NCBI GenBank assembly: GCA_037441385.1
Contig: JBBISH010000042.1
Coordinates: 1 to 45,009 of the forward strand
Direction of reading: 5' to 3'
Length of the DNA stretch: 45,009 nucleotides
Source of the DNA: Myxococcales bacterium
GTDB taxonomy: Bacteria; Myxococcota_A; UBA9042
Part shown: positions 11,688 to 27,240 of the stretch, in pieces
Position numbering within the stretch: position 1 is the stretch's first letter
Layout: the number at the start of each line of letters is the position of its first letter
Made by a program: the position numbers and the translations under genes
Notes under the pieces: generated by a model
The model's input: only the letters and a program-made list of their open reading frames with translations
The model's database searches: none
What the model was told of the DNA's origin: nothing

Positions 11688-11695
11688 CGACGCGA

Positions 11696-13459
11696 CTACG
11701 CGGACCGGGTCAGCAGCTGCGCTTCCATTTCTGCAGCCAGCGCCCGCACTTCTAGCGGCTTGGCCAAGAACCCTGTCATCCCGGCCTGCTGGCAGCGCTC
11801 GCGGTCCTCGGCCAAAGCGCTGGCGGTCAACGCGACCACCGGCACCCGGCCGCGCGGACCGTCCAGGGCGCGGATCATCTGCGTCGCCGTCAGGCCGTCC
11901 ATGCCCGGCATGTGGCAGTCCATCAGGATCAGGTCAAAATCCTGGGTCTTGGCCAGCTCGACACCCGCATCGCCGGCCTCTGCCGTCACCACCTGATGGC
12001 CAAGCCGCTGCAGCATGCGCTGCGCGACCACGCTGTTGACCGCATTGTCCTCGACCAGCAAGACCCGGCACGGCTGCATCACGGGCAGAACCTGCGACAC
12101 GGTACGCCGCGGCATGATCTGACTCGGCGGCACCCGCGGGGCGTTGACCTCGAAGCGGAACGTGGAGCCGCGCCCCACTTCGCTGACCACGTCGAGGTGA
12201 CCGCCCATGACGTCGACGATTTGCTTGCTGATGACCAGCCCCAGCCCCGTGCCGCCGAACTGGCGATTTTGCTTGGAGTCCACTTGCCGAAACGGTCGAA
12301 ACAGCTGCTGGATGTCTTCCGCGGCGATGCCGATGCCGGTGTCGGTCACCGCCACGTTCAGGCGATCTTGGTGCCACGAGACCGTGACATGGACACCGCC
12401 CGTCCGGGTGAACTTGATAGCGTTGCTGACCAAGTTGAGCATGACCTGCCGCAGCCGACCCGCGTCTAGCAAGAGCAGGTCCGGCACCATCGGTCCAACA
12501 TCGACTTCCATCGACAGAGCCGCCGAACGGGCCCGCTCGGCCAGCAACGTGGTGGTGGCGCCCAACACTTCGCGCACGTCCGCGGGCCGCTCGACCAGCG
12601 TCAGGTGACCGGCGTCCGCTTTCGAGAAGTCCAGAATGTCGTCGATGATTTCGACCAGCGCGCGGCTGGAATCCAAAATGAGCTGCAGCTGCCGGCGCGT
12701 GCCGGGGGCGAGGTCCTCGGCCAGCATCACGTCAGCCATGCCGATCACCCCGTTCATCGGGGTGCGGATCTCGTGGCTCATGTGCGCCAAGAACGCGGTA
12801 CGCGCATCGGTGGCTGCCTCGGCGCGGGCGCGGGCGCGATCCAGCTCGGCGGCAGAGGCCTGCAACTGCCCCATCGACTGATCTTTGGAGCGCTCGTAGA
12901 TGAGCGAGAGCGACAGCAGCATCACAGACAGCACCACCGCGCCCAGCACATCGTTCAGCTGCGACGGAGGATGGGTCAGGTGGCCCAGTTTCCCCGTACC
13001 AGCAAGCACGCCCACGGTCGTGATGGCGGCAGCCGTGAGCACCAACCAGACCAAACCCGAGCGGCGGCCGGCCAGAAACGCGGCGAGGATGGGCGAAATG
13101 CCCAGCCAGTACATGGAACCGATGTCGGCCCCGGCCATCTGGACGAGCGTGGTCAGGTTGGCCACCGCAAAAGTGGCCACGGCATAGTTGCCCGCAATGG
13201 TCATCGACCGCGTTTTCCGCAGCACCACCATGCTGAGCGAACCCAAGACGGCCGTGGCGGCCAGCGTGGCGGCAACGTGCGGCAGGCCATCGCTCCAATA
13301 CACCGCGGCAAACAGCATCGGCACGGCGAGGACGACCACCGAGTATAGAAGCAGCAACTCGGCGCGCAGACGCACGGCCGGATCGCCCAAGCGCACCGAC
13401 GGCGGCAACAGGCGGTCTGGCAAAAGCCGTAGACTCAGAAGTTGCTGCAAGTTCGCCAT
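11696..13459 (-). CDS. Membrane-bound hybrid sensor histidine kinase / response regulator
   Basis: About 6 TM helices, H-box FLAHMSHEIRTPMNG, N/G boxes (NLVSNAIKFT, DTGIG, GGTGLGL), receiver DLILMDCHMPGMDG. Start set at ATG 13459 (ORF track 13789). Confidence 0.92.
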   Translation of the reverse strand: MANLQQLLSLRLLPDRLLPPSVRLGDPAVRLRAELLLLYSVVVLAVPMLFAAVYWSDGLPHVAATLAATAVLGSLSMVVLRKTRSMTIAGNYAVATFAVANLTTLVQMAGADIGSMYWLGISPILAAFLAGRRSGLVWLVLTAAAITTVGVLAGTGKLGHLTHPPSQLNDVLGAVVLSVMLLSLSLIYERSKDQSMGQLQASAAELDRARARAEAATDARTAFLAHMSHEIRTPMNGVIGMADVMLAEDLAPGTRRQLQLILDSSRALVEIIDDILDFSKADAGHLTLVERPADVREVLGATTTLLAERARSAALSMEVDVGPMVPDLLLLDAGRLRQVMLNLVSNAIKFTRTGGVHVTVSWHQDRLNVAVTDTGIGIAAEDIQQLFRPFRQVDSKQNRQFGGTGLGLVISKQIVDVMGGHLDVVSEVGRGSTFRFEVNAPRVPPSQIMPRRTVSQVLPVMQPCRVLLVEDNAVNSVVAQRMLQRLGHQVVTAEAGDAGVELAKTQDFDLILMDCHMPGMDGLTATQMIRALDGPRGRVPVVALTASALAEDRERCQQAGMTGFLAKPLEVRALAAEMEAQLLTRSA

Positions 13460-13766
13460 CGGCACTTCCGATTGCCACACATGCGGGGCCACGCCGACTG
13501 GCCAATCACGGCGGCCTGGGTCAAGACCGCTGACCGGGCAATCGCGACGCCAGAACACTACCCAGGACTGTTGCCCAACAGCCTGGCCTGCTGCAGGGCC
13601 CCGCTGCAAAGTAGGGTATTCGCAGCGCTCTGGGTCGTCAAACTCTTGCCGTGCAATCCCTGCCCGATCCGCCTTGGCGCGCTCCCCCGCGGCGTGCAGC
13701 AGCGTACGGTTTCTGGGTGGGCGCTCAAGGTCTTGGGCAAGAAGGTTGCCGGGCCGATCTGGCCGC

Positions 13767-13795
13767 TTTACGCTGGCGCGCTGCGCCATTACACT
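13767..13795 (+). promoter_or_regulatory. Candidate sigma70-type promoter of the ape-like operon
   Basis: TTTACG (13767-13772), 17-nt spacer, TACACT (13790-13795), about 35 nt upstream of ATG 13830. Confidence 0.4.
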
Positions 13796-13829
13796 AGGCC
13801 GGGATCGGGCGGGGGCTCCGAGCTATGCG

Positions 13830-14645
13830 ATGATGCTGCGCTGGTTGGATCAAGGACTACGTTTCTTGCTGATCGTGCTGGCGTTTTCCAGCTTCGCTGC
13901 GGGCGGGCTGCTGCTGTCGCTGGTCGTCATCCCCATGCTGCGCCTGCTACCGGGAGACCGCGCCGCCTATGGCCACCGCTGTCGCCGGGCTACGCAGCAG
14001 GCCTATCGTCTTTTCCACGCCTACATGCGCGCCGCACGGCTGATCGACTACCAGCCGGGCCAACTGCAGCTGGATTTGCCGCCGGGCGGCTGCGTCCTGA
14101 TCGCCAACCACCCCACTCTGGTCGACGTGACCGCCATCTTGGCGGCGGTCGGGGAAGCCGCGTGCGTGGTCAAGCATACATACTACAATGGCCCCCTCCA
14201 CTTCTTGATGCGCGGCAATTGGCACATCGACGGCGGCCGGGGCGACGCGACCGCCGGCGCGGCCGTGGTGCTGCAGGCCATCGAACGCGTGAGCGCCGGG
14301 CTGCCGGTGCTGATTTTTCCAGAGGGCACGCGCTCGCCCGAGGGCGGATTGAATCGCTTCCAGCGCGGCGCGTTCGAGATCGCACGCCGTGCGGGCGTCC
14401 CCATCGTGCCACTGCGCGTGACCTGCGACCCGCCGGTGCTGGCCAAAGAGGCGCCTTGGTACCGGGTGCCGGTGCCGGCAGCGCGGTTGCGGATTGAACA
14501 GTTGCCGACGCTGTGGCCCGAGCGGGCGCCGGACACGACCAAAGCCTGGGCGGCCGAGTGCGAGGCCATGTACCGGCAACGCCTGCCCGCCACCGCACCC
14601 CACCCTGCGAACGACCTTGCACTGGCCGCCAACGCCGCCGCGTAG
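13830..14645 (+). CDS. PlsC-family lysophospholipid acyltransferase (ApeD-like)
   Basis: NHPTLVD (HxxxxD) and IFPEGTRS motifs with an N-terminal TM. Start reset to ATG 13830. Confidence 0.9.
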   Translation: MMLRWLDQGLRFLLIVLAFSSFAAGGLLLSLVVIPMLRLLPGDRAAYGHRCRRATQQAYRLFHAYMRAARLIDYQPGQLQLDLPPGGCVLIANHPTLVDVTAILAAVGEAACVVKHTYYNGPLHFLMRGNWHIDGGRGDATAGAAVVLQAIERVSAGLPVLIFPEGTRSPEGGLNRFQRGAFEIARRAGVPIVPLRVTCDPPVLAKEAPWYRVPVPAARLRIEQLPTLWPERAPDTTKAWAAECEAMYRQRLPATAPHPANDLALAANAAA

Positions 14646-14654
14646 ACAAGAGGA

Positions 14655-14930
14655 ATGCAAATGGCAGAACTTGAACGTGAATTGAAGGAGCTCATCATCG
14701 AAGCGCTGGCGCTCGAGGACTTGTCGCCCGACGACATCGTCACCGACGACCCGCTGTTTCGCGAAGGCCTGGGGCTCGACTCGATCGACGCCCTAGAGCT
14801 GTCGATGGCCATCCACAAGCGCTTTGGCGTGCGCATCGAGGCCGATGACAGCCGCAACAAGTCGATTTTTCGGTCAGTGAGCAGCCTGGCCGCCCACATT
14901 GCCGCCAACCGCGCGGCTGCCCCGCACTAG
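14655..14930 (+). CDS. Acyl carrier protein 1 (ApeE-like)
   Basis: GLGLDSIDALEL phosphopantetheine site, small acidic protein, GAGG RBS. Confidence 0.93.
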   Translation: MQMAELERELKELIIEALALEDLSPDDIVTDDPLFREGLGLDSIDALELSMAIHKRFGVRIEADDSRNKSIFRSVSSLAAHIAANRAAAPH

Positions 14931-14959
14931 CCGGTAGCCGTCGGCGTTGGGAGACTGAC

Positions 14960-15208
14960 ATGAATCGTGATGAAATTTTTGAGAAAGTCCGCGACATTCT
15001 GGCCGAGATGTTCGAAATCGACCCGGCGACGGTCAAGCTGGAGTCGCAGCTCGTGCAGGATTTGGACTTGGACAGCATCGACGCCATCGACATGGTGGTC
15101 AAGCTGCAAGAGCTGACGGGCAAACGCGTGGAAGAAGCCAAGCTCCGCAAAGTCCGCACGGTAGGCGACGTGGTCGACCTGGTGGAGTCGCACCTTGGGG
15201 CGAGCTGA
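14960..15208 (+). CDS. Acyl carrier protein 2 (ApeF-like)
   Basis: DLDLDSIDAIDM site and VRTVGDVV. GGAG RBS. Confidence 0.93.
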   Translation: MNRDEIFEKVRDILAEMFEIDPATVKLESQLVQDLDLDSIDAIDMVVKLQELTGKRVEEAKLRKVRTVGDVVDLVESHLGAS

Positions 15209-15827
15209 TCCGGCGGGCGGTGCGGCCTGGGTCGACAACGTGGCAAAGGCGCTGGGTGTTGCCTTGGGCATCGCCTATCCGTTGCTGCTGTGGTACGGGC
15301 TGACGCATTGGCCATCGCAACAGGTTGAGGCGCTGGTCCTTGCCACGCTGGTGATTCTGGCATGGCTGCGGTTGCGCAAAGTGGGCAAAGCGTTGCGGCG
15401 ATCGGTGGCGGCGGCGCCCCTGGCGGCAATTGCGCTGGCGGCGCTGGGGCTCGCGCTGGACGACCCGCGGCTGGTACTGGCGCTGCCGGCGCTAGTCAAT
15501 ACCATGTTCTTCCTGTCGTTTCTTGCCTCGTTGCGCGGCGTACCGATGATCGAGCGCTACGCTCGCCTGGTCAAACCAGAGCTGCCACCGGCCGAGGTGC
15601 GCTACTGCCGCAGCGTCACGCTGATCTGGTGCGCGTTCTTTGTCGCCAACGGCGCGACCGCCGCCGCTCTGGCCGCCTGGGCGAGCTACGACACGTGGGC
15701 CCTGTTTACCGGCATCCTGAGCTACGCCGCGATGGGCCTGCTCTTTGCCATCGAGTACGCGGTGCGCACGTTTCGGTTTGGCCGGCCCGCGGCCAACCCG
15801 CTGGCCTCGGAAGTCGTCCGGCCATGA
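15195..15827 (+). CDS. COG4648-type membrane protein (ApeG-like)
   Basis: Multi-TM protein with AYP, FLASL..PMIERYAR, Y.R.VT..WC.FF..NG and W...G..SY motifs. Position after the ACP pair matches ape clusters. Start may be GTG 15240. Confidence 0.82.
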   Translation: MGRADPAGGAAWVDNVAKALGVALGIAYPLLLWYGLTHWPSQQVEALVLATLVILAWLRLRKVGKALRRSVAAAPLAAIALAALGLALDDPRLVLALPALVNTMFFLSFLASLRGVPMIERYARLVKPELPPAEVRYCRSVTLIWCAFFVANGATAAALAAWASYDTWALFTGILSYAAMGLLFAIEYAVRTFRFGRPAANPLASEVVRP

Positions 15828-17548
15828 GTCTCGGTGCCTTTCGCATTCCTGCCCACCGGTTGGCTACGGATCGTGTATGCCACGACACCGCGCAACCTCG
15901 CACGCGACAAGAGTTTCTGACGGACGTTGCGCGGGTGGCGCGCCACTTGCCTGGGCCAACGACCGGTAGCCACATCGGCGTGGTGTGTCGCGACCGCTAC
16001 CTCTTTGCCGTGGCACTGCTGGCCGTATGGGCGCGCGGACACGCGGCTGCACTTCCGGGCAACGGACGGCCGCAAACCGTGGCGACACTGCTGGAACAGC
16101 CCAGCGTACTGGCTCTTTTGCACGACGGGGGCAGCGAAGACGAGCCCGCGCAACTGGGGAGCGACCTGCGCACTTGGCTGGACGAGCCGGCCGATGCCGC
16201 GGAGCCGGTCGAGCTGGTTGCCGACCAAAACGTTGCCACGGTCTACACTTCGGGCACCAACGGCGCGCCGCTGCCCTGCGCCAAGACGGCCGGCCAGTTG
16301 CTGGGCGAGGCAGCCAGCCACGTCGCCGAGTTGAATTGGCAACCGGGGCAGGCCTTTGCCGCAACTGTGCCGCCCAACCACGTCTACGGGCTGCTGTTTT
16401 CTGTGCTGGCGCCCCTGCTGTGCGGCGGCAGTTTGGCGCGCACAACGCCGCTCTACGCGCAGACGCTCGCGGCTGAACTGGCCGCGACGCCCGGAGCGAT
16501 TCTGGTCAGCGTGCCGGCGCATCTGGCGACGCTGGAAGTGCTGGATCCTGGCGCACTTGCGACCCTAAGCGGCGTGCTGTCGTCCACGGCGCCGCTGCCC
16601 GAACGGGTCTGGTCGATGCTCGCCCACCGCCATGGTCTGGTGCCGATCGAGGTATTCGGCTCGTCCGAGACGGGCGGCATCGCGCGGCGGCAGCGCGCCC
16701 GCGTGGACCACGTCGATTGGACCGCGCTGAAGGTGGTCCAGGTGCAGGCCGACCAGGACGGGCAACTGCTCGTCACTTCGCCGTTTGTCGGCGGCGGGAT
16801 GCCGCAGCCGGTGCGCACGGGCGACGCGGTCGAACTGGTGGGGCCGGGTCGTTTCGTCCATGCCGGCCGCAGCGATGGTATCGTCAAGACGGCGGGGCAG
16901 CGGGTCGCGCTGCAGGCGGTCGAAGACAAACTGATGGGCATCGCGGGTGTGCAGGATGCGGCCGTGCTGGCTCACCCCTCGGTCCAGCGGCTGCGCGACG
17001 TGGAATTGGTGGCGGTGGTGGTGGCGCCGGGACTCACGGCCAAGGCGTTGCGTCAGGCGCTGTCGGCGTGGTTCGAGCCGAGCACGCTGCCGCGGCGGTA
17101 CCATTTTGTCGACGCGCTGCCGCGGACCGCGACGGGCAAGCTGCCGCGGGCCCAATTGGCGCAGTGGCTAGAGGACCGCTTGCACCCCAGGGAGTTGCTG
17201 GTCCTGGAGCGGCAGATTCTGGCCGCAGACCCGGCGGGTGTGCCGCTGGCCGTGCGGCTGCAATTGCGGGTTCCCACAGAATTCGCCTACTTCCGTGGCC
17301 ACTTCCCAAATCTGCCGATCGTGCCAGGGGTGGCCGAGCTGCAGTGCGTGGTGGTGCCGGCCGTGGCCGAATTGCGGCCGAGCTGGCGCGGGCTGCGGCA
17401 AGTGAGCAAGCTCAAGTTTCGGCGGGTGATTCGACCGCTGGACGAGCTGACCCTGGATCTAAAACTGGGCAACTTGACGGCTGATTTTGAGTTGGTTCGG
17501 CGGGATGAGCCGTGCGCCTCGGGCCGGCTGCACTGGGAGGCTGGATGA
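15824..17548 (+). CDS. AMP-binding acyl-ACP/CoA ligase fused to a FabA/Z-like dehydratase (ApeH-ApeI fusion)
   Basis: ATGA overlap. Adenylation motifs YTSGTNG, PPNHVYGL, FGSSETGG, GRSDGIVK and PRTATGK, then a hotdog motif FRGHFPNLPIVPGV. Confidence 0.88.
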   Translation: MSLGAFRIPAHRLATDRVCHDTAQPRTRQEFLTDVARVARHLPGPTTGSHIGVVCRDRYLFAVALLAVWARGHAAALPGNGRPQTVATLLEQPSVLALLHDGGSEDEPAQLGSDLRTWLDEPADAAEPVELVADQNVATVYTSGTNGAPLPCAKTAGQLLGEAASHVAELNWQPGQAFAATVPPNHVYGLLFSVLAPLLCGGSLARTTPLYAQTLAAELAATPGAILVSVPAHLATLEVLDPGALATLSGVLSSTAPLPERVWSMLAHRHGLVPIEVFGSSETGGIARRQRARVDHVDWTALKVVQVQADQDGQLLVTSPFVGGGMPQPVRTGDAVELVGPGRFVHAGRSDGIVKTAGQRVALQAVEDKLMGIAGVQDAAVLAHPSVQRLRDVELVAVVVAPGLTAKALRQALSAWFEPSTLPRRYHFVDALPRTATGKLPRAQLAQWLEDRLHPRELLVLERQILAADPAGVPLAVRLQLRVPTEFAYFRGHFPNLPIVPGVAELQCVVVPAVAELRPSWRGLRQVSKLKFRRVIRPLDELTLDLKLGNLTADFELVRRDEPCASGRLHWEAG

Positions 17549-18321
17549 CGGCGGCGGATCGCAGCGGCGCGGCGGCCTTTCAGCCGTGCGTGCTGGTGCC
17601 CACGTACAACAACCCGGCGACCGTGCGCAAAGTGGTCGAGCGCGTCCGCGCGTCCTGCCACGACGTGCTGGTCATCGACGACGGCAGCGGGCCCGAAGGC
17701 CGGGCAGTGGTGGAGCAATTGGCCCGCGACGGCTTGGCGGTCGTGCGTCATCGCAACCAGAACGGGGGCAAGGGCGCGGCCGTCAAGACGGGGTTGAATC
17801 TGGCGCAGGAACTGGGCTTCAGCCACGCGCTGCAGGTCGACGCCGACGGCCAGCATGATCTGGACGCCATCCCCAGGTTCTTGCAGGCCGCAGAGCAGCA
17901 GCCCGCGGCGTTGGTCCTGGCGCGGCCCGAATTTGCGGCGGGCACCCCGCGCGGCCGGCGGATGGCGCGCGAGATCACCAATTTCTGGGTGCATATCGAG
18001 ACGTTCAACCTGGCCATCGCCGACGCGATGATCGGTTTCCGCGTCTACCCGGTGGCGGCGACGCTGGCGGCGCGCCCGCGCACGGACCGGATGGACTTTG
18101 ACATCGAGGTGGCGGTGCGGTTGGTGTGGGACGGAGTGCCGGTGTTGAATCTGCCGATTTCAGTGCGCTACTTGACGGCGGACGAAGGCGGGGTGTCGCA
18201 TTTCCGGCTGTTCTCAGACAATGCTCGCATTTCGTGGTTGCACACGCGGCTGGTGACCGAGGGCATCTTGCGCAAGTTGTTTGGCGTCAAGCGGTTTGGC
18301 CTGCGGCTGGAGGCGCCGTGA
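17545..18321 (+). CDS. GT2 glycosyltransferase (ApeJ N-terminal half-like)
   Basis: LVPTYNN, IDDGS, NGGKGAAV and QVDADGQH motifs. GGAGG RBS, ATGA overlap. Confidence 0.92.
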   Translation: MTAADRSGAAAFQPCVLVPTYNNPATVRKVVERVRASCHDVLVIDDGSGPEGRAVVEQLARDGLAVVRHRNQNGGKGAAVKTGLNLAQELGFSHALQVDADGQHDLDAIPRFLQAAEQQPAALVLARPEFAAGTPRGRRMAREITNFWVHIETFNLAIADAMIGFRVYPVAATLAARPRTDRMDFDIEVAVRLVWDGVPVLNLPISVRYLTADEGGVSHFRLFSDNARISWLHTRLVTEGILRKLFGVKRFGLRLEAP

Positions 18322-19229
18322 CCGCACCGCGCAACGAGGGCGACTGGCTTGGCGTGGCCGAAAAAGGCAGCGCTTGGGGCATCGCCACCACCATCTGGCT
18401 CGCCACCGTGGCGGGTCGGCCGGCGGCGCGCCTGCTCGTGCGCGGCATCGCGCTTTGGTACACGCTGCTTCACCCCGGCGTGCGCCGCGCCAGCCGGACT
18501 TGGTGGCTGCATGCCAACGGCCAGCGGCCTGGCTTGGGGCAGATCTATCGGCATGTGTTGCGTTTTGCCCAAACCGTGCTGGATCGCTGCTTCTTTTTGC
18601 AGGGCAAGTTCGACTTGTTCGCGATCGAGCGCGACGGCCACCAGCACTTGGTCGATCTGCACGAAAGTGGCCGCGGCGCCTTGCTTTTGTCGGCACACGT
18701 GGGCTCCACAGAGGCGATGGCGGCCGGCGGCTATCACGACAAGTTGAAGATTCGCGTGGTGGGCTATTTCAAGAACGCGGCCATGATCAACGCTGCGTTG
18801 GGGCGCTTGGATCCCATGTCGGCGACGCGTGTCATCCACATCGAACCGGGGAGCGCCGACTCGGTGCTGGCAATCCGCGACCGCATCGAGGCAGGCGAAC
18901 TGCTGGCGGTGGCCGGCGATCGGATCGGCCTCTCGGATCGCACGGTGACGGCTGAGTTTTTTGGCGAGCCGGCGCGTTTCGCTACCGGGCCTTTTTTGCT
19001 GGCGGCCATGCTCAAGTGCCCCGTCTATTTTGTGGGCGGTCTGTATGAAGAGCCGAACAAGTACAAGCTGTTCTGCGAGCCATTTGCCGACCGCATCGAC
19101 CTGCCGCGCAAGGACCGCGAGGCCGCCCTGCAGCGCTATGCGGCGCAGTATGCCCAACGCCTGGAGCACTTCGCCCAGCGAGCGCCGGATAACTGGTTCA
19201 ATTTCTATGATTTCTGGAGCAAGTCGTGA
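18318..19229 (+). CDS. LpxL-family lipid acyltransferase (ApeJ C-terminal half-like)
   Basis: GTGA overlap. SAHVGSTE (HxxxxE), GDR, F..GPF and C-terminal PDNWFNFYDFW. Confidence 0.88.
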   Translation: MTAPRNEGDWLGVAEKGSAWGIATTIWLATVAGRPAARLLVRGIALWYTLLHPGVRRASRTWWLHANGQRPGLGQIYRHVLRFAQTVLDRCFFLQGKFDLFAIERDGHQHLVDLHESGRGALLLSAHVGSTEAMAAGGYHDKLKIRVVGYFKNAAMINAALGRLDPMSATRVIHIEPGSADSVLAIRDRIEAGELLAVAGDRIGLSDRTVTAEFFGEPARFATGPFLLAAMLKCPVYFVGGLYEEPNKYKLFCEPFADRIDLPRKDREAALQRYAAQYAQRLEHFAQRAPDNWFNFYDFWSKS

Positions 19230-20788
19230 CGTTTGACGCACCGGTGCCGGTGGTGCTGATGGGCCGGCAACCGCTGAACATCGAAGATATCTTGGACCTG
19301 GCCCACGGTCGGGCGCACGTGGCGCTGGACGACCATCCCGAGGTCGCGGCGCGCATCGACGCGGCGGCCCAGTTGCTGGCCAGCCTGGTCCGCGACAACC
19401 GGGTGGTCTACGGTGTGACGACCGGGGTGGGCGATTCGGTCACCACGGCGGTCGGCGGCGCGCACGTCGACGATCTGCCCTTGAACCTCCTGCGGTTCCA
19501 TGGCTGCGGCACCGGTCCAGCCCTGGACCCCGTGGCCGCGGCAGCGGTGGTCGCGACGCGCCTGGCCTCGCTGAGCCGGGGGCACTCGGGGGTGCGGCGG
19601 ACGGTGCTCGATCGGCTGTGCCACCTGCTGAACCACCGGATTCTGCCCGTGATTCCGGCGATCGGTTCGGTGGGTGCCAGCGGCGATTTGACCCCGCTGT
19701 CCTACGTGGCGGCGCTGCTGGTGGGCGAGCGCGAGGCCTGGGTGGCCGGCGAGCAGGTGCCGGCGGAAGTAGCCTTGCGCGACGCAGGGTTGCCGCCCCT
19801 GCAGCTGCTGGCCAAAGAGAGCCTGTCGCTGATGAACGGGACCAGCGCCATGACCGCGCTGGCGTGCCTGGCGTTGGCGCGGGCCCAGCGGTTGGCGCGG
19901 TGGATGGCAGCCCTGACGGCCGTGCAAAGCGACGTACTCCAAGGGAATCCGGCGCACTTTGACAAGCGCCTGTTCGAGTTGAAGCCACACCCCGGTCAAG
20001 CCCTGGTGGCGCGCTGGATCGCCGCCGACCTGGAGTATCCGCGCGCGCGACCGGCCAGTCCGGCGCGCCTGCAAGACCGCTACTCGATTCGTTGCGTGCC
20101 GCACATCGTGGGCGTGCTGGTCGACGCACTGGCCTGGATGCGCCCGTGGTTAGAGGTCGAGCTCAACAGCGTCAACGACAACCCCATCCTGGACCCAGAC
20201 AGCGGCGACGTGCTGCACGGCGGCAATTTCTACGGCGGCCACGTGGGCTTTGCCATGGACAGCCTGAAGGCGGCAGTGGCGAGCATGGTCGACCTGCTCG
20301 ACCGCCAGATGGTGCAACTCTGCGATCCCAAGATGAACCATGGGCTGCCGGCCAATTTGGTCGGCGCGGTGGGTCCCGAGCAAGCGGTGCACCACGGCTT
20401 CAAAGCGATGGCCATCGCTACCTCTGCCCTGGCGGCAGAAGCAGGCAAAATGGCGATGCCCGTCGCGGTGTTCTCGCGCTCGACCGAATGCCACAATCAA
20501 GACAAGGTGCCCATGGCGACCATTGCGGCCCGCGATGCCCTGGCCGTGCTGGACCTGGCAGAGACGGCGGCGGCCATGCTGACGCTGGCGGTGGTGCAGG
20601 CCGTCGATCTGCGGCACCAGCACGGTTGTCACCAGCGCTCGCGCGCCCTTCATACCTCGCTGCGGGCGGCGGTGCCGATGGTGACGGCGGATCGGCGCAT
20701 GGACAGGGACATTGCGCAGGTGCTCGCGCTGGTGCAGGCCGGTCAGTTGGATCTGGGCAGCGACGCCGACGGCGCGGAGGCCACGTGA
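19226..20788 (+). CDS. MIO-dependent aromatic amino acid ammonia-lyase (HAL/PAL/TAL family)
   Basis: VYGVTTG, GSVGASGDLTPL (ASG at 19676-19684), NGT, QDRYSIRC, DNP, HGGNF and HNQD motifs. Confidence 0.95.
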   Translation: MTFDAPVPVVLMGRQPLNIEDILDLAHGRAHVALDDHPEVAARIDAAAQLLASLVRDNRVVYGVTTGVGDSVTTAVGGAHVDDLPLNLLRFHGCGTGPALDPVAAAAVVATRLASLSRGHSGVRRTVLDRLCHLLNHRILPVIPAIGSVGASGDLTPLSYVAALLVGEREAWVAGEQVPAEVALRDAGLPPLQLLAKESLSLMNGTSAMTALACLALARAQRLARWMAALTAVQSDVLQGNPAHFDKRLFELKPHPGQALVARWIAADLEYPRARPASPARLQDRYSIRCVPHIVGVLVDALAWMRPWLEVELNSVNDNPILDPDSGDVLHGGNFYGGHVGFAMDSLKAAVASMVDLLDRQMVQLCDPKMNHGLPANLVGAVGPEQAVHHGFKAMAIATSALAAEAGKMAMPVAVFSRSTECHNQDKVPMATIAARDALAVLDLAETAAAMLTLAVVQAVDLRHQHGCHQRSRALHTSLRAAVPMVTADRRMDRDIAQVLALVQAGQLDLGSDADGAEAT

Positions 20789-21213
20789 AAGCCGAGGACA
20801 ACGCGATCGAAATCCGCCTGGAGGTGCCGTTTCACGACGTGGACGCGCTGCGCATCGTCTGGCACGGCCACTACCTGAAGTACCTGGAGCTGGCCCGCAC
20901 CGCCCTGCTGCGTGCCGGCGGGCTGGACATGGACGGCGTAGTGGCGCTGGGCTACGGCTTTTTGGTCGTCGAGACGCGGCTGCGCCACAGTGCGCCGCTG
21001 CGCTATGGCGATCAGTTCAGCGTGCGCTGTTGGTGCGTCGATCTGGATCACCGCCTGCATGTGGCGTACGAAATTCACAACTTGACCACCGGTCGCCGCG
21101 CCGCCCGCGCCAGCACCAAGTTGGTCACCATCGACCTGCAGGGCAACCTGCAGTACGAGACGCCCGATGCGATTCGCCAGTGTTTGCAGCGCGCTCTGCA
21201 TCGCCACGGCTAG
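20785..21213 (+). CDS. 4HBT-family acyl-CoA/ACP thioesterase (ApeK-like)
   Basis: GTGA overlap with GGAGG RBS. Hotdog motif VPFHDVDALRIVWHGHYLKYLELAR. Confidence 0.9.
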   Translation: MKAEDNAIEIRLEVPFHDVDALRIVWHGHYLKYLELARTALLRAGGLDMDGVVALGYGFLVVETRLRHSAPLRYGDQFSVRCWCVDLDHRLHVAYEIHNLTTGRRAARASTKLVTIDLQGNLQYETPDAIRQCLQRALHRHG

Positions 21214-21820
21214 CCTGACCGGCACGCTGGTCTGGGCCGCGCCAGCGCCCGCGGCGGCGACCGACCTGGCGGGACTGCTGAAGGCTCTGGCGCAAATGCC
21301 GGGGCTGCAGGCGCAGTTCGTCGAAAAGAAGACGATGGCGCTGCTCGCCGCCCCGCTGGTGACGACCGGAGCGCTGTACTACACGCAACCCGGCACGTTG
21401 GCTCGCCATACTGCGACTCCGGCGATGAGCGTGGTGGTGGTCGATGCCAAGCAGGTGCGGATGTGGGACGGCAAGCACTGGGAAGTGTTGGACTTTGCCA
21501 AGCAGCCGGTGGTGCGCGGCTTTGTCGACAGCTTCGTGCGGATCCTGCAGGGCGACGCGCCCGCGCTCGAACGCCTGTACGCGATGCAATTCACGGCCTT
21601 GCCCGAGGGACGCTGGACGCTGACACTGCGGCCCAAGCTGGCGCCCTTGAGCCAAGTGGTCGAAACCATGACCCTCTCTGGCCAAGGACTGGTCGTGCAG
21701 ACCATGCGCATGGTCGAAAAGGGCGGTGACGAGACGGTCACTACCTTTGCCGCGGTCGACACGGCGCGCCGGTTCAGCGACGCCGACAAGGCCAAGTTCT
21801 TCCCGCAGCCGGGCCGGTAA
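21167..21820 (+). CDS. LolA-like periplasmic lipid carrier (ApeL-like)
   Basis: Signal peptide, F.EKK...L..PL...G.L and W.LTLRP motifs. Gene order matches ape clusters. Confidence 0.82.
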   Translation: MRFASVCSALCIATASLTGTLVWAAPAPAAATDLAGLLKALAQMPGLQAQFVEKKTMALLAAPLVTTGALYYTQPGTLARHTATPAMSVVVVDAKQVRMWDGKHWEVLDFAKQPVVRGFVDSFVRILQGDAPALERLYAMQFTALPEGRWTLTLRPKLAPLSQVVETMTLSGQGLVVQTMRMVEKGGDETVTTFAAVDTARRFSDADKAKFFPQPGR

Positions 21821-21823
21821 CCG

Positions 21824-24223
21824 ATGCGGGCTTGGTGGCAGGCGCTGCTGCGCGACAAGCACCGGGGCGACGCGCTGGTGCTGGCCGTGGGTCTGCTGGC
21901 CACCATGGCGATGGCGGCGTACTTGGCGACCAGCCTGCGCGTGGCGAGCGACGCGGCGCAACTGCTGCCCGAGACCGGCGAGCGCGACCTGGCGCAAGTC
22001 GCGACGATGCTTGCCGAAAGCTCGCTAGCCCGCACCATGGTCCTGACGGTGGGTGCCAAGGACCTAAGCGAAGCCAAGCAGGCGGCTGACGAGCTGCGCG
22101 AAAAGCTGAGTCGCCACCCCGAAGTGGCGCTGGCCAGCGCCGGCCCGGATCCCAAGCTGGCCGACGCGTTCTGGCAGTTGTACGAGCCGCGGCGACTGCT
22201 GTTCGCCTCGGAGCGGCCAGAGACGGAGCTGCCGCAACGCCTGAGCGACGCGGGCCTGCAGAAGGCCGCTCAAGAGCTGAAGAATCAGCTGGCTCTGCCC
22301 ACCGCGCCGCTGGTCAAGAAGGTGGCCCCCGGCGATCCGCTGTTGCTGCTACCCAACCTATTGCGTAGGCTCTCCGAGGCCGGTGCCGACGGCGTGCACG
22401 TCGACGAAGGGCAATTCGTCACGCGCGACAGCCAGCGCGCTGTGCTCCTGTTGAGCCTGCGCCACAGCGCCCTGGACGCCGAGCACCAAGCGCCGCTGCT
22501 GATCGAGATCGAGCAGCAGTTTCATGCGATTGCGCGGTCGCACCAGGGCCGGGTCGATCTACAGCAGAGCGGCATCAACCGGTTTGCGGTGGCCTCGCGG
22601 CAGAGCATCGAGGCCGATGTTGCTCGCATCTCAACCGTCTCTACGGTGGCGATGGTGGCTCTGTTCGCGGTGCTGCTGCGCTCGCTGTGGCTGCTGTTGG
22701 TCGCGCAGATCCCCATTGTCTTTGCGCTGCTGTGTGGTGCCACCGCCACGCAGCTGCTGCAGGGCGAAGTCCACGGCCTGACGCTGGCCTTCGGCTCGAC
22801 CCTCATCGGCGTGTGCATCGACTACCCGGTGCACTTCCTGAACCATTTCACACTGGATCCGCACCCAGACGGTCCCAAGGCGGGTCTGCGGTCGCTGTGG
22901 CCCGGCCTGTGGCTGGGCGCGCTGACCACGGTGGCGGGGTTCGCCGGGCTGGGCTGGTCGTCGTACCCGGGCATGCGCGGCGTGGCGGTGTTCGCCTCGG
23001 TGGGCGTGCTGGCGGCGGTACTGGCGACGCGCTGGTTCCTGCCGCGGCTGGTGGCCGCGCAACCCCCTGCCAATCCTCTACAAAGGCGCATGGCGCAGCT
23101 GCTCGAGGCCGGGCTGGATGGTCTGCGGCAACGGCGGGCGCTCATCGCGGCGCTGCTGTTGGCGGCGGTGGCGCTGACCTTGGCGGGCCTGCCGCGGCTG
23201 CAATGGAACGACGACTTGGCGGCGCTCAACAGCCTGGATCCCAAGATCAAGCTGGAAGACGACGCGGTGCGCGCCCAGATCTCGGCGCTGGAGCCGGGCA
23301 CGGTGGTGGTGGCGACCGCGGCCAACTTCGAGACCGCGCTGCAGCGGAGCGATCAGGTGGCGCTGGCCCTGCAAGGGGCCGTGGAGAAAGGGCATCTCCA
23401 GCACTTTCGCTCGCTGCACAGCTTCTTGTGGTCCGCCGATCTCCAACAGCGCAACCAGCGCGCGCTGCGTACGTCGCCGCAACTGGCCGAGCGGCTGGAC
23501 CGTGCCTTTGCCCAAGAAGGCCTGCGCGCAGGCGTGTTTGCGCCCTTTGCCGCGCTGCTCCAGGGGCCCGAGGCGGCGCCACTGCGCTGGGAAGACCTGC
23601 AGACCACCCCGGCCGGGCCGCTGCTGCAGACCTTTCGCAGTACGCTGCAGGGCCAGCCGGCGATCCTGACGTTTGTGAGCGGGGTTCGCGACAGCGCGGC
23701 GGTCGCGCTGGCGGTAGCGGGGATCCCCGGCGTGCGGTTCTTTGACCAGCGCGCGTTTGTGAACCGCGCCTACGCCGCCTACAGAAGCAGCACGGCGAGC
23801 ATGATCCTGGTGGGCATCGTATTGATCCTGCTGCTGATTCTTGGCCGCTATCGCTCGCTGCGGCTGCTGGCGGTCGCGTCTGTGCCGGCGATCCTGGCCT
23901 GTGCCGCCACGCTGGGTTTGCTGAGTCTGCTGGGTCAGGCCCTGAACCTGCTGCACCTGGTGGGCCTGGTGATCGTGCTCTCGATCGGGGTGGACTACGG
24001 CGTCTACCTGGCCGAGACTGCCGCGCGCCGCGAAGGCGAGCCGGCCACGGCGTTGTCGATCGTGGCAGCCGGGCTGTCGGCGTTCTTGGCCTTTGGTCTT
24101 CTGGGGTTGTCGAGCAATCCGGCGATGCAGGCGCTGGGTTGGACCACGGGCCTGGGCATCCTGTTCAGCTTGGCGCTGGCGCCGACCTTGCTGCTGTTGC
24201 CAACCGGAGAGCGGAAAACATGA
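21824..24223 (+). CDS. MMPL/RND-like lipid exporter (ApeM-like)
   Basis: Two halves of TM bundles with large periplasmic loops. GVCIDYPVH and SIGVDYGVY motifs. Confidence 0.9.
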   Translation: MRAWWQALLRDKHRGDALVLAVGLLATMAMAAYLATSLRVASDAAQLLPETGERDLAQVATMLAESSLARTMVLTVGAKDLSEAKQAADELREKLSRHPEVALASAGPDPKLADAFWQLYEPRRLLFASERPETELPQRLSDAGLQKAAQELKNQLALPTAPLVKKVAPGDPLLLLPNLLRRLSEAGADGVHVDEGQFVTRDSQRAVLLLSLRHSALDAEHQAPLLIEIEQQFHAIARSHQGRVDLQQSGINRFAVASRQSIEADVARISTVSTVAMVALFAVLLRSLWLLLVAQIPIVFALLCGATATQLLQGEVHGLTLAFGSTLIGVCIDYPVHFLNHFTLDPHPDGPKAGLRSLWPGLWLGALTTVAGFAGLGWSSYPGMRGVAVFASVGVLAAVLATRWFLPRLVAAQPPANPLQRRMAQLLEAGLDGLRQRRALIAALLLAAVALTLAGLPRLQWNDDLAALNSLDPKIKLEDDAVRAQISALEPGTVVVATAANFETALQRSDQVALALQGAVEKGHLQHFRSLHSFLWSADLQQRNQRALRTSPQLAERLDRAFAQEGLRAGVFAPFAALLQGPEAAPLRWEDLQTTPAGPLLQTFRSTLQGQPAILTFVSGVRDSAAVALAVAGIPGVRFFDQRAFVNRAYAAYRSSTASMILVGIVLILLLILGRYRSLRLLAVASVPAILACAATLGLLSLLGQALNLLHLVGLVIVLSIGVDYGVYLAETAARREGEPATALSIVAAGLSAFLAFGLLGLSSNPAMQALGWTTGLGILFSLALAPTLLLLPTGERKT

Positions 24224-24873
24224 GACTTCTTGCTCTCTTGCTTGCCCTGGTGACCCTGCTGGGCTGTTCGGGCCAGCCGCTGCGTCCGCCGGTCTTGACG
24301 GACGCGATGTACCCGTGGCCGCTGCGCCCGCCGCAGGCGCTGGGCAAGAACTTCTTGTGGCAACAAAGGCTTACGGCTCGGGTCGGGCCGCGGAGCGACT
24401 CGCTGCAGGTGGCGGTGCAAAAGCAGGGCGACACGCTGACGATGATCGGCCTCACGCCGTTCAACACCAAGGCCTTTGCTCTGACCCAGACCGGCGACAC
24501 GATTGACTTCAAGAAGTTCGTCGACCGCGACCTGCCGTTTCCGCCGCGCTACGTACTGGTCGACTTCCAGCGCACCTGGCTGGCGCTGGGGCCGGTGGGG
24601 CTGGGACCGCTGCCGGATGCGGCGACGCTCCCGGCAGATATCAAAGAAACCATGACCTTGGATGGCGAAGTGCTGACGCAGCGCGCCCAGGGCGGCAAGC
24701 TGGTCGAGCGCAGCTTTGTCCGCGCGCCGGCGGGGGCCGGTCCGCAGCCGCCGCTGACGATCCGCTACAGCGGCTATCGGGCCGATGGGCTACCGGGCAA
24801 GGTGGTCCTGACCAACAAGTGGTTTGGCTACGAGCTGGAGGTCGAGACCCTGGCGGCCCAGCCGCTGCCTTGA
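24220..24873 (+). CDS. DUF3261-like lipoprotein (ApeN-like)
   Basis: ATGA overlap, lipobox LLGC, and QQ.L, GLTPF, LPFPPRYVLVDFQ and N.WFGY.L motifs. Follows the MMPL gene. Confidence 0.75.
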   Translation: MRLLALLLALVTLLGCSGQPLRPPVLTDAMYPWPLRPPQALGKNFLWQQRLTARVGPRSDSLQVAVQKQGDTLTMIGLTPFNTKAFALTQTGDTIDFKKFVDRDLPFPPRYVLVDFQRTWLALGPVGLGPLPDAATLPADIKETMTLDGEVLTQRAQGGKLVERSFVRAPAGAGPQPPLTIRYSGYRADGLPGKVVLTNKWFGYELEVETLAAQPLP

Positions 24874-24891
24874 CGACGTGTGGAGCGAACG

Positions 24892-26277
24892 ATGCGTATC
24901 GCCTTCGTTTCTGGCAACCGCGAGCTGCTGCCCGATGCGGTGATCCCGCTGGGGCTGCTGTACGTGATGGCGGCGACGCCCGAGCATCACGAAAAAGTCT
25001 TGTGGGATCTGTGCTTCGAGGACGATCCCCAGGCGACGCTGGCGCGCAACCTGGCGCAGTTCCAGCCGGATCTGGTGGCGCTGGGCATGCGCAACATCCA
25101 GAACAACGACTACAGCGACACGTCGACGAACATTCAGTATTACCAGGACTTGATCGCCACGGTGCGCAGAACCTGCGGCGCCAAGGTGGTGCTGGGCGGC
25201 GGCGGGTTTTCGGTGATGCCCGAGAAGCTTTTACTGCGTCTGGGCGCGGACTTTGGCATCTCGGGCGAGGGTGAGTCGGCCTTTGTGGCCTTGACCGAGG
25301 CGCTGCAGACCGGCGGCGACCTGAGCGCGGTGGGCAACCTGCACCTGCGTCGCGCCGGGGCCCTGCAAGCTACCGTCCACAGCAACCCGCCGGCCGTGGG
25401 CTGGCAGAACCTGGACCAGTTGGCGGTACCGGACCGAAGCGTTGTTGATCCGCGGCATTACGGCACGTATCACATCGACTCGGTGCAGACCAAGCGCGGC
25501 TGCGCCCTGCACTGCGACTACTGCACCTATCCGCTGATCGAAGGCCGCGCGGTGCGCCAGCGCAGTCCCGAGGCGGTGGCCGACGAGATGTGCCTGTCGC
25601 TAGAGAAGCGCCCCGAGATCAAGCACTTCTTTGTCGTCGACTCGGTGTTCAACCTGCCGCCGCGCCACGCCAAAGCGGTCTGTCGCGCGCTCATCGACCG
25701 CAAGTGGCAGGTGCCGTGGACCGCCTATGCCAACCCGCTCGCGTTTGATCGCGAACTGGCGGATTTGATGGTGGCGGCGGGCTGTGCCGGTGTGGAGATC
25801 GGTTCGGACAGCGGCGTAGACAGCGTGCTGACGCGCATGAAAAAGGGCTTCCTGCGCAAGGACATCGAGCGGATGCACCAGACTTGCGCCGCTGCGGGCC
25901 TGCGCGACTGCCACACGTTCATCTTGGGCACGCCCGGCGAGACGTTGGACGATGTCGCCGAGTCCTTGGATTTCTGCAGGGATCTCAGCCCATTCGCGGC
26001 TATCTTGATGATTTGGCTGGACGACGCTGAATCGCTGGACCCGCAGCTGGCGGCCGAGCGCACCCAGTTCCGCGAGCAGGTCAAGCAGCGCGTGCTGCAG
26101 AAAGCCGATGAATTTCCGCGGTGGATCATCCCGCCGCTGGGCGTGAACTTCGATCCCCGGCTCTTCGACTTCTTGCGCACGCTGGGGATGGCCGGGCCGC
26201 TCTGGCAGCACCTGGACCGCCTAGACGGTCGCCCGCGCACCCGCAAGCGCCGCCTTTTGCCCGCAACTACCGCCTAG
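24892..26277 (+). CDS. Cobalamin-binding radical SAM enzyme, lipid-biosynthesis type
   Basis: N-terminal B12-binding domain (PLGLLYV, GMRNIQN, VVLGGGGFS) and QTKRGCALHCDYC (CxxxCxxC). Last gene of the operon. Confidence 0.9.
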   Translation: MRIAFVSGNRELLPDAVIPLGLLYVMAATPEHHEKVLWDLCFEDDPQATLARNLAQFQPDLVALGMRNIQNNDYSDTSTNIQYYQDLIATVRRTCGAKVVLGGGGFSVMPEKLLLRLGADFGISGEGESAFVALTEALQTGGDLSAVGNLHLRRAGALQATVHSNPPAVGWQNLDQLAVPDRSVVDPRHYGTYHIDSVQTKRGCALHCDYCTYPLIEGRAVRQRSPEAVADEMCLSLEKRPEIKHFFVVDSVFNLPPRHAKAVCRALIDRKWQVPWTAYANPLAFDRELADLMVAAGCAGVEIGSDSGVDSVLTRMKKGFLRKDIERMHQTCAAAGLRDCHTFILGTPGETLDDVAESLDFCRDLSPFAAILMIWLDDAESLDPQLAAERTQFREQVKQRVLQKADEFPRWIIPPLGVNFDPRLFDFLRTLGMAGPLWQHLDRLDGRPRTRKRRLLPATTA

Positions 26278-26540
26278 TTGACGTGAACGGCAGTGGTATC
26301 CACCACTTGCTCGGCGGCCTTGGGCTCTTCGGCCTTGGCTTCGGTGGCCTTGGCGGCGTCTGCCATCGCCTGGGCGGCGCGGTCCAGGGTGTCCGACACG
26401 GTGCGCAGCAGCTGCGCCTGACCCTTGACGGCCGAGACACCCATCGAGAGGCCCTGGCGCGCCCACATCCCGCCGACGTCGACGAGCGTGTGCACGATTT
26501 CGGCTTGCTTGGGGCTCATTTTGCTGTAGATCGACTGCAT
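26274..26540 (-). CDS. Small Ala-rich helical hypothetical protein
   Basis: ATG 26540 with a purine-rich RBS (AAGGAAGAGG), 88 aa, 29 nt downstream of the RHH gene. Confidence 0.65.
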   Translation of the reverse strand: MQSIYSKMSPKQAEIVHTLVDVGGMWARQGLSMGVSAVKGQAQLLRTVSDTLDRAAQAMADAAKATEAKAEEPKAAEQVVDTTAVHVN

Positions 26541-26569
26541 CTTGTCCTCTTCCTTGCCGTGGTCCGGCA

Positions 26570-27106
26570 TCAAGCGGCCTGGTCGGGGTTGCGGCCCGGC
26601 AGGCATGGGTCACACACAAAACGGCGGGGCCCGGGCGTCTCGCTCAGGGCCACGTGAGCGGCAGTGCCAGGGACCAGTTGGGCCCCGCAGCGCGCGCAGT
26701 TGGCCGGCAGGTTCAACACCAGCGGCTGAAAACCATAAACATCGTCTAGACTTGCAAACTTGGCGACCGCGCTGCGCAGCTTGGCCCGCTCGTCGCCAAC
26801 GCGGTTCGCCACCGTGCGCAGCTCGCGCTCGATGCCCTGCCCAGCCCGGTCGGCGACCATCACCGCATCTTCCAGGATGGTGCGCACCAGGTTCGACACG
26901 GGGACGCGCAGGTTGTCGGCAAAGCGCTTCAGCTCGGCCTCTAGGACTGCGGGAACGCGCGTGTGCAGCACTCGCTCTTTGCGCTCGCGCTCGCTGCCGG
27001 TTTGCTCGGTGGCGTCGGCCGCGGCGGTCGGCTCGGCTTGGTCAGGCGCGGGTGCGGATTCGGATTCGGGCGTCTCGGCGGCGGGGTCAGTGGGCGCGGT
27101 GGTCAT
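26570..27106 (-). CDS. Putative ribbon-helix-helix DNA-binding protein with C-terminal Zn-finger
   Basis: VLHTRVPAVLEAELKRFADNLRVPVSNLVRTILEDA fits the RHH strand-helix-helix pattern. CARC...CDPC Cys pairs and GGAG RBS. Confidence 0.72.
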   Translation of the reverse strand: MTTAPTDPAAETPESESAPAPDQAEPTAAADATEQTGSERERKERVLHTRVPAVLEAELKRFADNLRVPVSNLVRTILEDAVMVADRAGQGIERELRTVANRVGDERAKLRSAVAKFASLDDVYGFQPLVLNLPANCARCGAQLVPGTAAHVALSETPGPRRFVCDPCLPGRNPDQAA

Positions 27107-27115
27107 GGCAACTCC

Positions 27116-27160
27116 GTATCACAACGAGTCACAATGTATCACAACGTCACACGCCGTCAA
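27116..27160 (-). promoter_or_regulatory. Sigma70-type promoter overlapped by three phased TTGTGA direct repeats (putative operator)
   Basis: -35 TTGACG (27160-27155), 16-nt spacer, TGn-TACATT (27138-27133). TCACAA at 27119, 27129 and 27139 on the plus strand, plus TCACAC at 27147. Confidence 0.7.
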
Positions 27161-27204
27161 GGCTGGTCGCGCAGAAAATTGCGCCGCGCGCCCCAAGTCA
27201 GAAT

Positions 27205-27221
27205 GGGGGGCATTTTCTACT
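27205..27221 (-). repeat. Dispersed 17-bp motif AGTAGAAAATGCCCCCC, copy 2
   Basis: Plus strand reads GGGGGGCATTTTCTACT, the exact reverse complement of copies 1 and 3. Confidence 0.9.
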
Positions 27222-27240
27222 TGTTGTTTTTGTTATGTTT

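Follow-up and report, generated by a model that had tools for sequence, protein, structure and literature searches.

Our study reports on a 13-gene operon that resembles part of the aryl polyene (APE, ape) biosynthetic clusters and ends in a gene for a cobalamin (B12)-binding radical S-adenosylmethionine (SAM) protein, here called the rSAM. It lies in a 45,009-nucleotide stretch of DNA from a Myxococcales bacterium; this stretch, the window, makes up the entire contig C42. The genome, G000, comprises 6.63 Mb in 221 contigs and is 90.9% complete, and its nearest relatives carry the label Myxococcota. The operon occupies positions 13830-26277 on the forward strand, and Pfam and NCBIfam profile searches identify its products as listed below (percentages are identities to E. 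coli proteins).

13830..14645, +, ApeD-like lysophospholipid acyltransferase: PF01553 (E 3.7e-19); NHxxxxD and FPEGT motifs; best genome match of E. coli ApeD, 30% over 145 aa
14655..14930, +, ApeE-like acyl carrier protein (ACP): NF006617, 107.8 bits (cut-off 70); 49% to E. coli ApeE; DSI motif
14960..15208, +, ApeF-like ACP: NF003757, 106 bits (cut-off 65); 48% to E. coli ApeF
15195..15827, +, ApeG-like membrane protein of the COG4648 type, with an uncertain start codon: 40% identical to E. coli ApeG across 101 aa
15824..17548, +, ApeH-ApeI fusion of an aryl-acid adenylating ACP ligase and a hotdog dehydratase: PF00501, PF13193, PF22818
17545..18321, +, GT2 glycosyltransferase equivalent to the N-terminal half of E. 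coli ApeJ: PF00535; 46% to ApeJ residues 5-230
18318..19229, +, LpxL-type acyltransferase equivalent to the C-terminal half of E. coli ApeJ: PF03279; 30% to ApeJ residues 246-550
19226..20788, +, aromatic amino-acid ammonia-lyase of the methylidene-imidazolone (MIO) type with an FH selectivity pair: PF00221 (E 1e-151); ASG, YGxTTG and NLLRFHGCG motifs
20785..21213, +, ApeK-like thioesterase: PF13279; 34% to ApeK
21167..21820, +, ApeL-like LolA-fold carrier: PF19574/PF03548; NF053544 LolA2_flexi under cut-off; no tblastn match from E. coli ApeL
21824..24223, +, ApeM-like MMPL/RND exporter: PF03176; 24% over 544 aa to ApeM
24220..24873, +, ApeN-like DUF3261 lipoprotein: PF11659 (E 2.4e-16); no tblastn match from E. 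coli ApeN
24892..26277, +, rSAM, a TsrM-like B12-binding radical SAM protein: PF02310 and PF04055; CxxxCxxC at C204/C208/C211; alternative GTG start at 24880

The fusion protein matches ApeH over 439 aa (28%) and ApeI over 73 aa (34%), and its top NCBIfam match is the 4-coumarate-CoA ligase family TIGR02372, under the cut-off; the top NCBIfam match of the ammonia-lyase, the BagA/FevW tyrosine ammonia-lyase, also falls under its cut-off. Six of the twelve gene junctions are 4-bp stop/start overlaps and the largest gap is 29 bp, while a divergent histidine kinase gene and a convergent gene for a 110-aa hypothetical protein border the operon. The gene order (apeD, E, F, G, fused H-I, J split in two, ammonia-lyase, K, L, M, N, rSAM) was compared with the E. 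coli CFT073 ape cluster in Table 1 of PMC8253772 and with its annotation; it is that of apeD to apeN, with the lyase inserted before apeK and the rSAM gene directly after apeN, in the position of apeO in E. coli. An initial annotation of the window had described 13 tightly coupled genes of these identities, in apeD-apeN order and between opposite-strand genes, and all of these elements were recovered here.

No gene for a ketosynthase (KS), chain-length factor (CLF), ApeP or FabG was found in the window, an absence that applies to the window and not to the genome. An assembly artefact is ruled out, as the operon sits mid-contig and both of its flanks are also found in the related genomes G005 and G007. 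Downstream of the rSAM gene, two hypothetical genes and a weak GH35-like lipoprotein gene (26274-28887, reverse strand) are conserved in these two relatives only, and appear to be flanking synteny outside the pathway.

A chain-elongation block on a second contig

A profile search of the whole genome located the elongation enzymes on contig C11, where PF00109, PF13723 and PF22817 all match. The genes form a run with overlapping junctions on the minus strand (10798-17150), in the order deacetylase-apeO-apeC-apeP-apeQ-apeR-fabD.

C11:16239-17150, -, deacetylase of the elongation block
C11:14994-16184, -, KS (ApeO): best genome match of E. coli ApeO, 40%; Cys-His-His intact
C11:14227-14997, -, CLF (ApeC): PF13723 (E 4e-32); best genome match of E. 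coli ApeC, 36% over 97 aa
C11:13796-14230, -, ApeP dehydratase: PF22817; best genome match of E. coli ApeP, 35%
C11:13059-13799, -, FabG (ApeQ ketoreductase): best genome match of E. coli ApeQ, 52%; YxxxK kept
C11:11827-13062, -, KS (ApeR): best genome match of E. coli ApeR, 46%; Cys-His-His intact
C11:10798-11751, -, FabD: GHSLG kept

Both ketosynthases score above the cut-offs of NF006618 and NF006587 and fail that of the fabF family TIGR03150, which rules them out as housekeeping FabF. Contamination of the assembly by C11 is unlikely, since G005 carries the same block at 64-90% identity, comparable with the window genes (65-93%); the G+C content at third codon positions is also similar in the block and the window genes (0.75-0.86 against 0.78-0.88). 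A GT4 glycosyltransferase gene adjoins the block after fabD and may be linked to the pathway.

When 18 E. coli Ape proteins were searched against G000 with tblastn, 14 found a match, ApeL and ApeN were matched through their Pfam families only, and ApeA and ApeB had no match. ApeB is a class I methyltransferase, a tailoring gene whose presence varies among ape clusters; neither the E. coli protein (E<=1e-3) nor the orthologue from the relative G017 found a counterpart in this 90.9% complete genome. The hallmark parts of an ape system are thus all present: two KSs, a CLF, tandem ACPs, the ApeI and ApeP dehydratases, ApeQ, ApeM with ApeL and ApeN, and ApeD and ApeJ. They form two blocks, each inside its contig among unrelated flanking genes, and not the single contiguous locus that is usual for ape clusters, though dispensable for their chemistry. 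The initial annotation had proposed a distinct pathway without chain-elongation enzymes, and the best candidate in the window for an undescribed system; neither proposal stands beside a dedicated apeC/O/P/Q/R block in the same genome. The split cluster that it had offered as an alternative agrees both with this block and with its contiguity with window-block genes in G012, G017 and G121.

Two blocks of one probable pathway

The distribution of partner genes argues that the blocks work together. The only ACP matches in G000 (PF00550) are the two in the window, the only FabA/Z-type match is the ApeI of the window, and the only two matches to the C-terminal KS domain (PF02801, E<=1e-12) are the KSs of C11; with the sole ACPs in the window and the sole elongating KSs on C11, no alternative partner for either block is present in the assembly. 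G000 also holds one phosphopantetheinyl transferase (PPTase; contig C56), one FabH-like gene in a different setting (C122) and three carboxyltransferase genes, candidate suppliers of malonyl-CoA. Both blocks are present, their catalytic motifs are intact and they occur together in relatives. We therefore consider it very probable that the operon and the C11 block constitute one split pathway for an APE lipid.

The arrangement in relatives highlights how variable this linkage is. In G121 (C216), which lacks the rSAM, a stretch of 20 kb contains ApeB, apeD-I, a deacetylase, a PPTase, the FabD-bearing KS block, and apeK-N together with the lyase; in G017 (C115) the KS block faces apeD-N, with ApeB present and both lyase and rSAM missing; and in G012 (C318) 2.2 kb separate the end of the rSAM gene from fabD. 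G005 shows the same split as G000, with its elongation block on C193 (64-90% identity), and in G003 and G006 the ape genes are scattered in four pieces. The rSAM gene follows apeN in G000, G005, G007 and G012, and stands upstream of the deacetylase, PPTase and apeD genes in G010. These layouts are those of one cluster broken at different places. The initial annotation had asked whether the KS-less layout with an rSAM recurs: layout and flanks do recur in G005 and G007, but G005 has its KS block elsewhere. Consistent co-inheritance of lyase and rSAM was ruled out by G121, which has the lyase and ApeB and lacks the rSAM. Related ape clusters on G023:C20 and G026:C37 (L061, L064) contain flavin halogenase-like genes, so that halogenated APE variants may exist in the class.

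The characterised APE systems suggest a model for the pathway (gene roles and the GalNAc-phosphate-glycerol lipid structure as given in the cited parts of PMC8253772 and bioRxiv 10.1101/2020.12.19.423268). The ammonia-lyase would make a 4-coumarate (or cinnamate) starter, ApeH would load it onto an ACP and FabD would supply malonyl-ACP; ApeO/ApeC with ApeQ and ApeI/ApeP would then build the polyene, and ApeR would make a second conjugated chain or aid initiation. ApeD, the GT2 enzyme and the LpxL-type enzyme would attach the chains to an amino-sugar phospholipid, which ApeM/L/N would export, yielding an APE-type outer-membrane pigment lipid. In the least certain step, the rSAM would C-methylate the aryl head, replacing ApeB.

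In the lyase the ASG and YGxTTG motifs are intact, and Phe-His occupies the selectivity positions. An FH pair is described as tyrosine ammonia-lyase (TAL)-like or intermediary in the relevant section of PMC5651878, and that of PMC9226071 links His at the second position to histidine ammonia-lyase (HAL). The FH motif, and the occurrence of this lyase alongside ApeB in G121, as would suit a hydroxylated ring, make 4-coumarate the likely starter, with cinnamate possible. A separate Ser-His (SH-type) lyase on contig C30 is probably a catabolic HAL.

Family, structure and distribution of the rSAM

The rSAM scores best against TIGR04072 (265 bits, cut-off 360; model positions 1-350 of 443), followed by BzaD (177) and TsrM (TIGR04428; 143, cut-off 500), and was rejected as a member of either TIGR04072 or TsrM, as it fails both cut-offs. 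Five close relatives score 251-261 bits on TIGR04072, also below its cut-off, and five of the seven tested distant homologues, from sulfate reducers at 35-38% identity, pass it. A quick tree, from which 9 of the 89 fetched sequences were left out as short or interrupted, groups the 62 subfamily rows together across a branch that is not firmly supported (SH-aLRT 81). To judge from these scores and the tree, the rSAM belongs to an uncharacterised sister group of TIGR04072. A true member of that family (369.6 bits) stands between ketosynthases in a different ape-like cluster of the same class (G030:C27, L032/L033), and the window itself holds a second, distant radical-SAM-like gene (34506-35921, forward strand; 22% over 182 aa to the rSAM).

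The closest solved structure by profile is TsrM, a cobalamin-dependent tryptophan C2-methyltransferase (PDB 6WTE/6WTF; E 2.6e-47), followed by AprD4 (4e-30), and TsrM fills the top four rows of a fold search with the predicted AlphaFold structure (pLDDT 86.6; TM about 0.7). Arg67 of the rSAM aligns to TsrM Arg69, and Arg is found in 61 of the 62 subfamily rows. In TsrM, as the relevant parts of PMC8992657 describe, Arg69 on the lower axial side of the cobalamin favours transfer of the methyl group onto the indole ring, and radical formation is blocked by Glu273, a ligand to the unique iron.

Many rSAM relatives exist near 60% identity. We took the best 80 of at least 595 loci, 65 of which are at 45% identity or above. 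Within these 65, 34 have at least three ape gene types within 10 kb, with a KS or CLF in 27 of the 34, and 32 of the 50 loci of at least 12 kb reach the same threshold. Across a phylum sample of 221 genomes, in which kin are not independent and at most seven candidates were scored per genome, the rSAM occurs in 11 of 58 CLF-positive genomes versus 1 of 163 others; outside the G000 family, six of eight CLF-positive carriers have the CLF within 19 kb on one contig. Among the 41 genomes related to G000, eight carry an rSAM orthologue and seven of those a CLF, the exception being G007, which is 81% complete. As the rSAM usually stands beside ketosynthases, it does not replace them. The proposal in the initial annotation that it modifies the product by radical chemistry is backed by this co-occurrence as to a role in the pathway, but the evidence indicates tailoring and not a substitute for elongation. 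We conclude that the rSAM probably acts on the APE pathway.

The starter genes at the rSAM loci vary, with an FkbO/Hyg5-type chorismatase at 18 of the 80 and a lyase in view at 4 of the 65. In a Polyangia sub-clade (L137:2541-12653 and L142) the rSAM follows benzoyl-CoA-reductase-type genes (two HGD-D, two BadFG), a zinc dehydrogenase, an enoyl-CoA hydratase and an amidohydrolase, and a second B12 rSAM adjoins; there the rSAM may act on an aryl-CoA.

What the rSAM might do

Because no apeB was found in G000 and the closest structure is the aromatic methylase TsrM, the rSAM may methylate the ring; within the G000 family, no co-occurrence of ApeB and the rSAM was observed. C-methylation of the aryl head in place of ApeB is our tentative proposal, made with a little less than even confidence.

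Several observations weigh against this reading. TsrM Glu273 is replaced by Val252, and Val stands in 58 of the 62 subfamily rows, so that the TsrM mechanism cannot be assumed. Strict exclusivity of rSAM and ApeB does not reach significance: across the 58 CLF-positive genomes none has both where 1.7 would be expected (P=0.13), 38 have neither, and in one case (L109:2779-5211) an ApeB orthologue, 46% identical to E. coli ApeB, directly follows the rSAM. No ape gene lies within 10 kb at 14 of the 50 long loci, and in three of the eight related rSAM genomes (G003, G006 and G023) the rSAM shows no linkage to ape genes. The FH motif, TAL-like or intermediary, leaves the starter uncertain. In a 90.9% complete genome, an apeB or another partner that seems to be lacking could also lie in the unassembled part.

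If the pathway is a split APE pathway, the rSAM could instead methylate, cyclise or cross-link the polyene or conjugated acyl chain rather than the ring, a possibility that has been proposed for the 'ladderane-candidate' B12 radical SAM enzymes and that we regard here as rather unlikely. Its best-scoring family is named 'lipid biosynthesis B12-binding/radical SAM protein', it lacks the Glu by which TsrM prevents radical chemistry, ApeB coexists with the rSAM at L109, and the rSAM is found with different starters. The next-best families, BzaD and TsrM, nevertheless act on aromatic rings, the Arg under the cobalamin is kept, and the Polyangia sub-clade again provides an aryl-acyl setting. Radical cyclisation has been put forward for anammox clusters, as a proposal only (PMC2649909 and PMC13459092, in the parts cited here).

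It is unlikely that the rSAM is a passenger of another pathway at the end of a split APE operon. The unlinked copies and the long loci without ape neighbours would fit such a passenger, as would the 15 B12-binding-domain matches in G000. Within the family, however, the rSAM stands beside ape genes in two different positions, after apeN and upstream of the deacetylase; in G003 and G006 all ape genes are scattered; and CLF is found in 11 of the 12 carriers of the phylum sample, within 19 kb in most of those from outside the family.

The fatty-acid background of the host

Housekeeping ACP (TIGR00517) and FabZ (TIGR01750) each score above cut-off in one of the 41 genomes of the class, with controls passing in 8 and 9 of 14, and KS matches are lacking in 12 of the 41, 9 of these among the 33 near-complete genomes. 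KS and ACP matches are both absent from G001, G009, G016 and G018, which are 90-95% complete, as they are from several class genomes of 90-96% completeness, and the incomplete assembly of G000 gave no match for acpP, fabF/B, fabZ or lpxC. This pattern suggests fatty-acid auxotrophy in the class and possibly the absence of lipid A. FabD is joined to the KS block in eight genomes (G000, G003, G005, G006, G010, G012, G023 and G121), and may have been recruited there because housekeeping fatty-acid synthesis is apparently missing. Bradymonabacteria are described, in the cited part of PMC7460792, as predatory bacteria without FabB/F and FabI/L that have lost type II fatty-acid synthesis (FAS II).

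With FAS II apparently missing and FabD at the KS block in eight genomes, the ape enzymes might have been turned over to the production of ordinary membrane acyl chains, in place of a pigment lipid or alongside it; this is very improbable, as the four genomes named above lack both systems and the cluster therefore looks dispensable, neither block encodes an enoyl reductase, and the starter lyase and export genes are retained. Least probable of all, and scarcely to be entertained, is a KS-less pathway in which an aryl-acrylate is loaded, radical-modified, placed on a glycolipid and exported without elongation: the KS-free operon with its rSAM after apeN, and the recurrence of layout and flanks in G005 and G007, the latter without any KS match, are outweighed by a full apeO/C/P/Q/R block whose sole possible ACPs are those of the window, by the elongation block of G005, by the state of the G007 assembly (81% complete, 580 contigs) and by an ApeI dehydratase that would be idle without elongation.

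Significance and comparison with known systems

Most likely, then, the operon belongs to a cluster of one of the commonest biosynthetic kinds in bacteria, here in a split copy, with an uncharacterised rSAM as its one unusual part. Among the papers listed by our literature search, none characterises a B12 rSAM in an APE cluster; the 2014 APE-defining paper and preprint supplements may already describe rSAM-bearing or split subtypes. A single rSAM on the well-understood APE backbone would offer a clean readout, with and without the enzyme, for the still unsolved chemistry of B12 rSAMs in lipid clusters of the polyene and ladderane types; a host that has apparently lost FAS II would make this an unusual self-sufficient APE system. 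On a more speculative reading, which we think somewhat less probable than its converse, an unnamed, widespread TsrM-like subfamily would provide the tailoring enzyme that an entire branch of APE clusters is missing, combining a TsrM-type Arg-activated cobalamin with an iron left free for SAM to methylate or otherwise remodel the pigment on its carrier or lipid. The host would have lost its ordinary synthesis of fatty acids and lipid A, which would leave the split cluster, with its own recruited FabD, as its only ACP-based chain builder.

Compared with the ape clusters of E. coli CFT073 and Xenorhabdus doucetiae (cited parts of PMC8253772 and bioRxiv 10.1101/2020.12.19.423268), G000 has counterparts of all proteins from ApeC to ApeR, 14 of the 16 by tblastn and ApeL and ApeN by Pfam. 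The core of KS, ACP, CLF, dehydratase, ketoreductase and transporter is complete and the apeD-apeN order is the same. G000 differs in its distribution over two contigs, in the CLF gene between apeO and apeP, in the fused ApeH-I and in the split ApeJ; it has an ammonia-lyase, fabD and the B12 rSAM in addition, and ApeA and ApeB were not found.

Of the flexirubin and xanthomonadin pigment clusters, those for flexirubin share the start by ammonia-lyase and 4-coumarate ligase, and FlxA, FlxB and LolA2_flexi are NCBIfam matches under cut-off; the rSAM family is also found beside chorismatase-started clusters. The G000 system differs from the pigment clusters in that neither block holds dialkylresorcinol genes and its anchor genes belong to the E. 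coli/Xenorhabdus type. Three halogenase queries had no match in G000. The apparent loss of fatty-acid synthesis in the lineage resembles the loss described for Bradymonabacteria (PMC7460792, in part), a likeness in this trait that does not establish membership of G000 in the group; aryl polyenes go unmentioned in the cited part.

TIGR04072 (rSAM_ladder_B12), the family of the 'ladderane-candidate' FAS II clusters (PMC2649909), is the best-scoring family of the rSAM and shares with it the B12 and radical SAM domains and the lipid-cluster context; the rSAM and its five close relatives nonetheless score 251-265 bits, keep to their own side of a branch and are associated with canonical ape clusters. 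TsrM differs from the rSAM in sequence (about 28% identity), in Glu273, which is Val in the rSAM, and in length, the rSAM being about 110 residues shorter; the two have in common the top profile and fold match and the equivalent of Arg69.

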